NCBI RefSeq assembly: GCF_009931435.1
Contig: NZ_CP043414.1
DNA from: Escherichia coli
Lineage (GTDB): Bacteria; Pseudomonadota; Gammaproteobacteria; Enterobacterales; Enterobacteriaceae
Length of the DNA stretch: 64,000 bases
Reading direction: 5' to 3' (one strand)
Shown piece after piece: positions 56,940-59,982 of the stretch (position 1 is the stretch's first letter; each line of letters starts with the position of its first letter). The notes beneath the pieces are model-generated. The model worked only from the letters and a program-made list of their open reading frames with translations. It had not been told where the DNA came from and searched no databases. Both the position numbers and the translations under genes were made by a program.

Positions 56940-59789
56940 TTGAAATACCTTGCTTCTTTTCGTACAACCCTGAAAGCCTCGCGCTACATGTTCAGAGCAT
57001 TGGCGTTAGTGCTCTGGCTGTTGATTGCTTTTTCATCCGTTTTTTACATCGTTAATGCGTTGCATCAGCGAGAATCGGAAATTCGTCAGGAATTTAATCT
57101 GAGTTCCGATCAGGCTCAGCGCTTTATTCAACGCACCTCTGATGTGATGAAAGAGCTGAAGTACATAGCTGAAAATCGCTTATCGGCAGAAAACGGTGTG
57201 CTTTCGCCGCGTGGACGAGAAACGCAGGCAGATGTGCCAGTGTTTGAACCACTGTTTGCCGACTCCGATTGTTCCGCAATGAGTAACACCTGGCGAGGTT
57301 CTCTGGAGTCATTGGCGTGGTTTATGCGCTACTGGCGCGATAATTTCTCTGCGGCTTACGATCTCAACCGGGTATTTTTAATCGGCAGCGATAACCTTTG
57401 CATGGCCAATTTCGGTCTGCGTGATATGCCAGTGGAACGCGATACCGCGTTGAAAGCTTTGCATGAACGCATCAATAAATATCGAAATGCACCACAAGAT
57501 GATAGCGGCAGTAACCTCTACTGGATCAGCGAAGGTCCGCGCCCTGGCGTCGGGTATTTTTACGCCTTGACGCCAGTTTATCTGGCGAACCGGTTGCAGG
57601 CGCTTTTAGGTGTTGAGCAGACCATCAGGATGGAGAACTTCTTCTTACCTGGTACGTTGCCGATGGGGGTAACCATTCTTGATGAAAATGGTCATACCCT
57701 GATTTCGCTTACCGGACCGGAAAGCAAGATTAAGAGCGATCCTCGCTGGATGCAGGAACGTTCCTGGTTTGGCTATACGGAAGGGTTCCGGGAACTGGTG
57801 CTGAAGAAAAACCTGCCACCTTCATCGTTAAGCATCGTCTATTCGGTGCCGGTTGATAAGGTGCTGGAGCGCATTCGCATGTTGATCCTTAACGCGATTT
57901 TACTGAATGTGCTTGCCGGAGCCGCGTTGTTTACTCTCGCACGGATGTACGAGCGGCGTATATTCATTCCTGCGGAAAGCGACGCCCTGCGACTGGAAGA
58001 GCACGAGCAGTTTAATCGCAAGATTGTCGCTTCCGCGCCAGTGGGTATCTGCATTTTGCGTACCGCTGATGGCGTTAATATTTTAAGTAACGAACTTGCG
58101 CATACCTATCTCAATATGCTTACGCATGAGGATCGCCAACGACTGACGCAAATTATTTGTGGTCAGCAGGTCAATTTTGTTGATGTCCTGACCAGCAACA
58201 ATACCAATCTGCAAATCAGCTTCGTCCATTCGCGCTATCGTAATGAAAACGTGGCTATTTGTGTGCTGGTGGATGTTTCTTCGCGCGTGAAGATGGAAGA
58301 GTCGTTGCAGGAGATGGCACAAGCAGCGGAACAGGCGAGTCAGTCAAAATCGATGTTCCTTGCCACCGTAAGTCATGAGCTGCGAACGCCGTTGTATGGC
58401 ATTATCGGTAACCTGGATCTGTTGCAAACCAAAGAGCTGCCAAAAGGCGTCGATCGTCTGGTGACGGCAATGAACAACTCTTCCAGCCTGTTGTTGAAAA
58501 TTATCAGCGATATTCTCGATTTCTCGAAAATTGAATCAGAACAGTTGAAGATCGAACCGCGTGAGTTTTCACCGCGTGAAGTGATGAACCACATCACCGC
58601 CAACTATTTACCGCTGGTGGTACGCAAGCAGCTAGGCTTGTACTGCTTTATTGAACCGGATGTGCCAGTGGCCTTAAATGGCGACCCAATGCGTTTACAG
58701 CAGGTCATCTCCAACCTGTTGAGTAACGCCATAAAATTCACCGATACCGGCTGTATAGTTCTGCATGTTCGCGCTGATGGCGATTATCTCTCTATCCGTG
58801 TTCGCGATACCGGCGTGGGGATTCCGGCGAAAGAAGTGGTGCGCTTGTTTGATCCCTTCTTCCAGGTCGGAACGGGCGTACAGCGTAACTTCCAGGGGAC
58901 TGGTCTGGGTCTGGCGATTTGTGAAAAACTGATCAGCATGATGGACGGCGACATCTCGGTAGATTCAGAACCGGGAATGGGCAGCCAGTTTACCGTGCGT
59001 ATTCCGTTGTACGGCGCTCAGTACCCGCAGAAAAAAGGCGTGGAAGGGTTGAGTGGTAAACGCTGCTGGCTGGCGGTCCGCAATGCGTCGCTCTGTCAGT
59101 TCCTGGAAACCAGTTTGCAGCGCAGCGGCATCGTCGTTACAACATACGAAGGGCAGGAACCGACTCCCGAAGATGTGTTAATCACTGACGAGGTAGTGAG
59201 CAAAAAATGGCAGGGTAGAGCGGTAGTGACCTTCTGTCGTCGCCATATTGGTATTCCGCTGGAGAAAGCGCCAGGGGAGTGGGTACACAGTGTGGCTGCA
59301 CCGCATGAGCTACCGGCATTGTTGGCGCGTATTTATTTGATCGAGATGGAGAGCGATGATCCTGCTAACGCTCTGCCGTCGACGGACAAAGCGGTCAGCG
59401 ATAACGACGATATGATGATTCTGGTCGTGGATGATCATCCGATTAACCGGCGTCTGCTTGCAGATCAGTTGGGATCGTTGGGTTATCAATGTAAAACTGC
59501 GAATGATGGCGTCGATGCGCTTAATGTACTTAGCAAGAATCATATCGATATCGTGCTTAGCGACGTCAACATGCCAAATATGGATGGTTACCGCTTGACG
59601 CAACGCATTCGTCAGTTGGGGCTGACGTTGCCGGTAATCGGAGTAACTGCTAATGCGCTGGCTGAAGAGAAGCAGCGGTGTCTGGAGTCCGGTATGGACA
59701 GTTGCCTGTCGAAGCCGGTAACGCTGGATGTTATAAAACAGACACTGACGGTATATGCCGAGAGGGTCCGGAAATCGCGGGAATCGTAG
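56940..59789 (+). CDS. rcsC: hybrid sensor histidine kinase RcsC (949 aa)
   Basis: 949-aa ORF with periplasmic domain, HisKA (SHELRTP), HATPase and C-terminal receiver domain. Confidence 0.95.
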   Translation: MKYLASFRTTLKASRYMFRALALVLWLLIAFSSVFYIVNALHQRESEIRQEFNLSSDQAQRFIQRTSDVMKELKYIAENRLSAENGVLSPRGRETQADVPVFEPLFADSDCSAMSNTWRGSLESLAWFMRYWRDNFSAAYDLNRVFLIGSDNLCMANFGLRDMPVERDTALKALHERINKYRNAPQDDSGSNLYWISEGPRPGVGYFYALTPVYLANRLQALLGVEQTIRMENFFLPGTLPMGVTILDENGHTLISLTGPESKIKSDPRWMQERSWFGYTEGFRELVLKKNLPPSSLSIVYSVPVDKVLERIRMLILNAILLNVLAGAALFTLARMYERRIFIPAESDALRLEEHEQFNRKIVASAPVGICILRTADGVNILSNELAHTYLNMLTHEDRQRLTQIICGQQVNFVDVLTSNNTNLQISFVHSRYRNENVAICVLVDVSSRVKMEESLQEMAQAAEQASQSKSMFLATVSHELRTPLYGIIGNLDLLQTKELPKGVDRLVTAMNNSSSLLLKIISDILDFSKIESEQLKIEPREFSPREVMNHITANYLPLVVRKQLGLYCFIEPDVPVALNGDPMRLQQVISNLLSNAIKFTDTGCIVLHVRADGDYLSIRVRDTGVGIPAKEVVRLFDPFFQVGTGVQRNFQGTGLGLAICEKLISMMDGDISVDSEPGMGSQFTVRIPLYGAQYPQKKGVEGLSGKRCWLAVRNASLCQFLETSLQRSGIVVTTYEGQEPTPEDVLITDEVVSKKWQGRAVVTFCRRHIGIPLEKAPGEWVHSVAAPHELPALLARIYLIEMESDDPANALPSTDKAVSDNDDMMILVVDDHPINRRLLADQLGSLGYQCKTANDGVDALNVLSKNHIDIVLSDVNMPNMDGYRLTQRIRQLGLTLPVIGVTANALAEEKQRCLESGMDSCLSKPVTLDVIKQTLTVYAERVRKSRES

Positions 59790-59982
59790 GCTTATAAGAC
59801 ATTTACGCCGCATCTGGCATTCAGTGCAAATGCCAGATGCGACGCTGGTGCGTCTTATCTGGCCTACTTTGTTGTAATCCATTGAAATAATGGGAATCGT
59901 AGGCCGGATAAGGCGTTTACGCCGCATCCGGCATTCAGTGCAAATGCCAGATGCGACGCTGACGCGTCTTATCTGGCCTACA
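59785..59982. repeat. Tandemly duplicated REP/BIME unit between convergent rcsC and rcsB
   Basis: Two near-identical units of about 88 bp (GAATCGTAGGC...TTTACGCCGCATC.GGCATTCAGTGCAAATGCCAGATGCGACGCTG.CGCGTCTTATCTGGCCTAC), at 59781-59868 and 59894-59981. Confidence 0.7.

Follow-up and report, generated by a model that had tools for sequence, protein, structure and literature searches.

In the 64,000-nucleotide (nt) stretch of Escherichia coli DNA analysed here (contig NZ_CP043414.1; hereafter the window), two convergent genes, rcsC (56940–59789, plus strand; TAG stop codon at 59787–59789) and rcsB (59988–60683, minus strand; TAA stop codon at 59988–59990), face each other across a gap of 198 nt. 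Both genes were placed from open reading frames (ORFs) and the RefSeq annotation of matching genomes, and the RefSeq gene names agree among near-identical E. coli genomes, the nearest of which is strain 2013C-4282 (99.8%). Judged from its sequence, the element that fills the gap is a bacterial interspersed mosaic element (BIME) of the BIME-2 type: an array of two modules, each consisting of a Y-type repetitive extragenic palindromic (REP) unit, an 11-nt linker and an inverted Z2-type unit. The element is already known; it is the catalogued REP162 of E. coli K-12, an ordinary BIME-2-type array with the copy-number polymorphism typical of its class. We consider it likely that this REP162-type element was duplicated from a local segment, has since undergone unequal recombination and provides a 3′ structure shared by the mRNAs of both genes.

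Two homologous units in the rcsC–rcsB gap

Unit 1 spans 59771–59867 (97 nt) and unit 2 spans 59884–59981 (98 nt). The units are identical at 87 of 98 positions, with one 1-nt indel, and their starts lie 113/114 nt apart. Identity is 93% across a gapless core of 74 nt and 86% across a left flank of 21 nt. The first-pass annotation had proposed a tandem duplication of an 88-bp unit at 59785–59982. Our self-alignment bears out two units in the convergent gap that are homologous over their whole length, but the unit measures 97/98 nt (82/83 nt from GTAG to CTAC) rather than 88, and the homology begins at 59771, 19 nt inside rcsC. Within the window each unit is the other's sole full-length match; the remaining REP sequences match them over a single 37-nt palindromic unit (PU) or at 76% over 80 nt. 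Because parts outside the palindromes are also common to both units (16 of 19 positions in the left flank, and all of the 11-nt linker), the similarity of dispersed REPs is insufficient to explain their likeness. The copies are not strictly head-to-tail, and Tandem Repeats Finder reported no array at the rcsC–rcsB gap. We attribute this null result to the presence of fewer than two full periods and to a non-homologous 16-nt spacer between the units, and do not take it as evidence against the repeat.

Unit 1 opens with the last 19 nt of rcsC (59771–59789, plus strand; GAAATCGCGGGAATCGTAG), which encode K S R E S and the stop codon, as supported by the sequence, the ORF and the C termini of orthologous RcsC proteins. 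The stop codon falls within the conserved GTAG of PU1 (59786–59819, plus strand), a degenerate Y-type unit that keeps its GTAG and folds alone at −4.3/−6.1 kcal/mol; its left arm is mutated, with GGCTTATAAGACA in place of GGCCGGATAAGGCG. A short head-to-head linker (TTCAGTGCAAA, 11 nt, 59820–59830), which corresponds in length and position to the 11-nt linker of REP325, leads to PU2 (59831–59867), a Z2-type unit with its GTAG end on the minus strand (−22.1/−21.1 kcal/mol). The 16-nt spacer TTTGTTGTAATCCATT at 59868–59883 has no clear counterpart in unit 2. Unit 2 then begins with a relic of the rcsC 3′ end (59884–59898, plus strand; GAAATAATGGGAATC, followed by GTAG), which agrees with the genuine end of rcsC at 16 of 19 positions. 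Next come PU3 (59899–59933, plus strand), a canonical Y-type unit that folding and alignment show to be identical to the Y units of REP325, the same short linker TTCAGTGCAAA (59934–59944), and PU4 (59945–59981, minus strand), a Z2-type unit assigned from its folding and its alignment to the naRNA4 model. The CTAC of PU4 ends 6 nt before the rcsB stop codon, which is placed by sequence, ORF and annotation.

Other REP or BIME elements lie in the window at 28071–28107, 29529–29642 and 36404–36512. The first is a single unit that carries a CCAGAT/ATCTGG stem variant like that of the rcsC–rcsB Z2 units and is 97% identical to PU4.

Predicted structure and class of the element

In predicted folding, PU2, PU3 and PU4 each form a GTAG/CTAC hairpin of 35–37 nt at about −21 kcal/mol with an internal stem mismatch. 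PU1 has lost its palindrome, and unit 1 as a whole is still predicted to be able to form one long hairpin. On each strand the predicted fold of the region is far more stable than those of shuffled controls (z = −8.3 and −10.6), in agreement with the strong structure expected in the first-pass annotation. Unit 2 aligns with Rfam family RF02564 (naRNA4) over all 77 positions, at 84.3 bits on the plus strand and 62.9 bits on the minus strand. The gathering score of the family is 59.5 bits, which unit 1 does not reach (50.9 and 36.4 bits). The naRNA4 model was built on the Y–linker–Z2 units of REP325, and the REP325 units of K-12 have the same Y(35)–11–Z2(37) layout as the rcsC–rcsB units. Across twelve aligned units from the rcsC–rcsB locus and REP325, 95.5% of cells are paired in the two-hairpin structure, and the Z2 stem of the rcsC–rcsB units carries one compensatory A–U/U–A pair relative to REP325. 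Rfam also returned microRNA families, far below threshold; these matches merely reflect long hairpins and were rejected.

By definition a REP unit is an imperfect palindrome of 30–40 nt whose 5′ foot has a conserved GTAG and whose stem contains a mismatch (Ton-Hoang 2012), a description that fits PU2, PU3 and PU4; PU1 has only the GTAG and no palindrome. All four lie within the 198-nt gap, and the GTAG of PU1 is the only part that overlaps rcsC. Their order, Y(+), Z2(−), Y(+), Z2(−), with 11-nt head-to-head linkers and a 31-nt tail-to-tail linker, is that of a BIME. The joining of Y and Z2 by a short S linker and a tandem copy number that differs among strains (1, 2 and 3 units) are both properties of BIME-2, the Z2 label relying on the description of REP325 as Y/Z2. 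The 31-nt tail-to-tail linker does not correspond to the s, l or r motif of BIME-2 and is unlike the 17-nt spacer of REP325, so on a strict reading of that motif the element could be called an 'atypical BIME'. We dropped that class, together with a Z1 label for the long Z unit, because the naRNA4 alignment and the REP325 sequence show it to be the Z2 of a BIME-2.

REP325 (yjdM/yjdN; the source of naRNA1–6) is thus a close structural relative, with the same alternation of Y and Z2 and the same 11-nt head-to-head linker, and BIME-2 arrays of its kind likewise consist of tandem units of strain-variable number in a 3′ untranslated region. It differs from the window element in having six units rather than two, a period of 100 rather than 114 and a tandem rather than convergent gene setting, as well as in the A–U/U–A swap of the Z2 stem; its tail-to-tail linker is a 17-nt spacer, whereas that of the window is locus-specific, 31 nt long and carries a relic of the neighbouring gene. 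BIME-1 (RIP or RIB) elements resemble the window element in lying in an intergenic 3′ region and pairing Y with a Z-type unit in inverted orientation. They are, however, single-copy, with a Z1 unit and a long L linker containing an integration host factor (IHF) site (Ton-Hoang 2012), whereas the window element has an 11-nt linker, a Z unit of the Z2 type and two copies of the module.

The K-12 MG1655 element REP162 is at the orthologous locus and has four PUs in the same order and the same type of inter-unit linker, with a gap of 199 nt against 198 nt in the window. The differences are allelic only. PU1 is degenerate in the window and does not fold alone; PU4 is bulged in the window and has a perfect 14-bp stem in K-12; 5 of the 16 spacer positions differ; and RcsC terminates in …RES in the window and …RDS in K-12.

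Origin of the second unit

The start of unit 2, GAAATAATGGGAATCGTAG, matches the end of rcsC at 16 of 19 positions. We found that RcsC proteins of other Enterobacteriaceae end in …RK(S/T)R(E/G/T/D) followed by the stop codon, encoded by …AAATCGCGGGGATAG and similar sequences, and that in the genera with this terminus no BIME of the E. coli type lies downstream. Since the same C terminus is thus encoded where this BIME is missing, the terminal stretch of rcsC is ancestral coding sequence, and the left end of unit 2 is therefore a relic of the rcsC end. The converse, that the left flank is a generic BIME linker captured by rcsC, was rejected, as other genera encode the …CGCGGG… terminus and 16 of 19 positions of the flank agree with rcsC. 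A 47-nt query across the inter-unit junction was found at the rcsC–rcsB locus only, at 4,471 places in 4,436 genomes or about one per genome; the inter-unit linker is thus not a dispersed BIME motif.

To judge by these matches, the second unit is a local segmental duplication of about 114 bp and not a second REP insertion. In the simplest course of events, the two-module state would have resulted from tandem duplication of some 114 bp, the final 19 nt of rcsC among them. The 16-nt spacer may be what remains, after decay, of a copy of the rcsB 3′ end; aligned in register with that end, the spacer matches weakly, at 5–6 of 9 positions in its 3′ half and nil in its 5′ half.

At 59779–59789 the rcsC end (GCGGGAATC-GTAGG) also has an 8-nt string, GCGGGAAT, in common with the reverse complement of the 17-nt REP325 spacer (GGAGGGTGCGGGAATTT-GTAGG). 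This is probably a coincidence, as outgroups encode the same residues, although the string could be a microhomology relevant to the settling of the BIME at rcsC.

Copy number and alleles across E. coli

To determine how the array varies, we surveyed 5,426 complete E. coli genomes. The inter-unit junction is present in 4,436 of them (82%), and both flanks are intact in 5,335–5,336. Subtracting the genomes with the junction from those with intact flanks, or from all genomes, leaves 899–990 single-unit genomes (16.6–18.2%), in agreement with an evenly spread sample in which 10 of 58 chromosomal rows had a single unit. An extra junction, signifying three or more units, occurs in at most 35 genomes. 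The frequencies are thus about 17–18% for one unit, about 81% for two and below 1% for three or more. The gap measures 85 nt in the one-unit state, 199 nt in K-12 MG1655 (two units) and 313 nt in strain c1-17 (three units). The first-pass annotation had held copy number to be strain-variable, and the survey confirms this: the two-copy arrangement is not uniform among complete E. coli genomes.

Seven one-unit alleles are hybrids of the left part of unit 1 and the right part of unit 2, and the switch point differs among them. The allele of Nissle 1917 joins the unit 1 marker GGACGG to the unit 2 marker GATAAGACAC, that of strain E50 joins a degenerate Y arm of the window type to a Z2 of the K-12 type, and c1-17 has the reciprocal hybrid as its middle unit. 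MOD1-EC7003, the sole outgroup Escherichia recovered, has one unit with neither derived marker. These patterns indicate that the duplication is old and that unequal crossing-over has recurred since, as the several crossover points among the hybrids show. Unequal homologous recombination between the repeats of about 98 bp would then let lineages drift among one, two, three or more units.

The units themselves also vary. The degenerate PU1 allele of the window occurs in 104 of the 5,426 genomes (about 2%). In K-12 and most genomes the rcsB-proximal Z2 lacks the stem mismatch and forms a perfect 14-bp stem (GATAAGACAC...GCGTCTTATC), listed at −25.3 kcal/mol in a published table; in the window lineage PU4 still has the canonical bulge. 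Binding by the REP-associated transposase is reported to depend on the stem mismatch (Ton-Hoang 2012).

The first-pass annotation had described such arrays as frequent sites of insertion sequence (IS) entry and rearrangement. For IS elements this is weaker at the present locus, where we found one case, and that outside the array. In E. coli B-DolR (NZ_CP117044.1, 3090–3165), an IS1 begins 20 nt into the rcsB 3′ end, equivalent to window position ~60009 and 28 nt past the BIME, and the remainder of rcsB, rcsD, micF and the 5′ part of ompC are gone. Events of this type may be the source of many of the ~90 of 5,426 genomes without an intact rcsC–rcsB junction. In the window, the antisense RNA MicF lies at 63639–63732 on the minus strand (Rfam RF00033, 116.8 bits), the position expected upstream of rcsD in the ompC–micF–rcsD–rcsB locus.

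The gap in other Enterobacteriaceae

Eleven outgroup loci, a set that did not include E. albertii or E. fergusonii, provided a comparison with other genera. The rcsC–rcsB gap ranges from 39 to 273 nt in these Enterobacteriaceae, with a structured element in every one examined. Leclercia, Pluralibacter and an Enterobacter species have classic bidirectional terminators (A-tract, stem, T-tract) in the gap. A lone REP-like unit is present in Pseudescherichia, and tail-to-tail pairs of REPs in Citrobacter and 'Enterobacteriaceae 89'. The RcsC of E. coli exceeds most others by one residue (…KSRES before the stop codon, versus …KSRE or …KTRG), its stop codon being supplied by the GTAG of the REP.

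A probable role at the 3′ ends of both mRNAs

The 3′-end mapping that the first-pass annotation had recommended already exists for K-12, where it places transcript ends at each of the two Z2 hairpins. Table S16 of Harris et al. 2026 (bioRxiv 10.64898/2026.03.23.713779) includes the element under the name REP162 and flags REPs inside previously mapped bidirectional terminators between convergent genes. Placed on the window by sequence, the entry at K-12 2316832–2316874 corresponds to 59942–59984 (PU4) and that at 2316942–2316985 to 59831–59874 (PU2). Both entries are given there as regions of convergent-transcript overlap in log and/or stationary phase; within the 8-nt flanks the table counts 2–4 A and 3 U. 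The same preprint places about 60% of REPs between convergent genes, counts a REP in 207 of 704 convergent gaps and describes REPs as context-dependent terminators and stabilizers.

A scan for intrinsic terminators gave no excess over chance, with one site found against 1.0 expected and none at the REP hairpins, and no U-tract follows the stems. Bidirectional intrinsic terminators occupy the same position as the window element, and the job is probably alike; the REP162 hairpins appear in the bidirectional terminator table. The window stems, however, lack flanking A or U tracts. Since no U-tract follows the hairpins, the transcript ends are probably not formed by classical intrinsic termination.

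Taken together, the most likely role of the element, as we interpret these data, is to form and protect the 3′ ends of the two convergent mRNAs, a reading to which the terminators and other REPs in this gap of other genera lend independent support. Transcripts that run into the gap from rcsC or from rcsB would fold GC-rich hairpins, and their ends would form by hairpin-dependent pausing with Rho or collision of convergent polymerases, or by 3′-to-5′ exonuclease trimming to the foot of a hairpin. The hairpins would then shield the message upstream of them and curb antisense read-through into the facing gene. We infer both the presence of the K-12 transcript ends in the window strain and the manner in which such ends form. 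The second copy probably adds redundancy and not a new function, and ribosome stalling at the stop codon is a possible secondary effect that would damp translation.

Several observations weigh against parts of this account. Across the genome, terminal REPs show no association with longer mRNA half-life in bioRxiv 10.64898/2026.03.23.713779, and any role as a stabilizer is therefore context-dependent. REP162 was not found in the searched part of the supplementary text, which includes the Rho-binding screen table, so that involvement of Rho at this element is unsupported. The persistence of lineages with one, two and three units and the decay of PU1 argue that selection acts weakly, if at all, on the precise number of units and on the first hairpin. 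As to origin, a one-step duplication of 114 bp is not fully demonstrated, as the spacer has no convincing match to the rcsB end.

Alternative explanations

One possible alternative, which we would not dismiss lightly yet do not favour, is that the array is neutral repeat DNA: a REP pair seeded by the REP-associated transposase or by recombination, with the second copy a functionless passenger and changes in copy number invisible to selection. Such an origin would account for the coexistence of one, two and three units in healthy lineages, the decay of the first Y hairpin in about 2% of genomes (including the window strain) and the scatter of crossover points, and length polymorphism is a known general property of BIME-2. 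It sits less well with the presence of a terminator-like structure in the rcsC–rcsB gap of every genus examined, with three intact hairpins near consensus (95.5% of cells paired) and with the K-12 transcript ends that map to these hairpins. This alternative concerns the second copy more than the whole element and is compatible with a role in 3′-end formation and protection. We think it unlikely that the main role of the element is instead to damp translation, in which case ribosome stalling at the stop codon, mRNA cleavage and trans-translation would lower the output of RcsC and RcsB. REPs less than 16 nt from a stop codon are stated to down-regulate translation (Liang, Rudd and Deutscher 2015, as summarized in PMC12306157). 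The rcsC stop codon lies inside the PU1 GTAG and the rcsB stop codon 6 nt from the PU4 CTAC; at 0 and 6 nt from a REP, both genes are within the limit of 15 nt or less given for stalling in that summary. In the window lineage, however, PU1 is unable to fold alone and the first stable stem on the rcsC side lies ~16 nt past the stop codon, so that any damping of rcsC would be weaker there because of the decay of PU1. It is improbable, in our view, that unit number and PU1 decay together form a heritable, reversible dial on the RcsC:RcsB ratio, acting through termination efficiency, mRNA protection or stalling.

Action at the level of DNA, as a site for gyrase cleavage (BIME-2) or IHF binding (BIME-1/RIP) that eases positive supercoiling between convergent units, appears quite unlikely to us. 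The BIME-2 composition and the convergent setting fit this idea, and gyrase cleavage of BIME-2 is cited in the literature. An IHF-like site, TTTCAATGGATTA, lies on the minus strand at 59875–59887 with one mismatch to the consensus WATCAANNNNTTR, overlapping the 16-nt spacer in the inter-unit linker; K-12 has TTTCAACAAATTA at this position. The long L linker that carries the IHF site of BIME-1 is absent, however, and in AT-rich sequence a single one-mismatch match to a consensus of 9 positions is weak evidence, which leaves the IHF binding suggested in the first-pass annotation with this one site. We give very little credence to the idea that the element yields a nucleoid-associated RNA of the naRNA4 kind, one that would bind HU and help to condense or bridge the chromosome, the role originally proposed for naRNA4 (Qian et al. 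2015). Unit 2 exceeds the gathering threshold on both strands (84.3 and 62.9 versus 59.5 bits), but this match merely shows a Y–linker–Z2 pair such as occurs in many BIME-2 units, and unit 1 falls below the threshold (50.9 bits). Moreover, the biological role of the naRNA4 family is itself in dispute: bioRxiv 10.64898/2026.03.23.713779 reports that deletion or over-expression of REP325/naRNA4 leaves nucleoid volume unchanged and that REP–REP contacts are not seen, and finds the HU/naRNA4 model of chromosome compaction not supported.

Implications

Beyond correct annotation the element has little significance, as its general behaviour and its copy-number polymorphism are textbook for BIME-2 arrays. 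The modest new details are the rcsC-end relic, the frequencies of the copy states, the hybrid alleles and a hairpin that is dead in one lineage. The repeat shows that REP-specific mobility is not the only way for BIME arrays to expand: ordinary segmental duplication, carrying flanking coding sequence along, can do the same. The natural one-, two- and three-unit alleles, together with the allele in which the first hairpin is dead, are material for testing the effect of REP dosage on a convergent pair of regulators. If the array did act as a dial on the RcsC:RcsB ratio, it could shift the set-points of envelope stress, capsule and biofilm between E. coli lineages.

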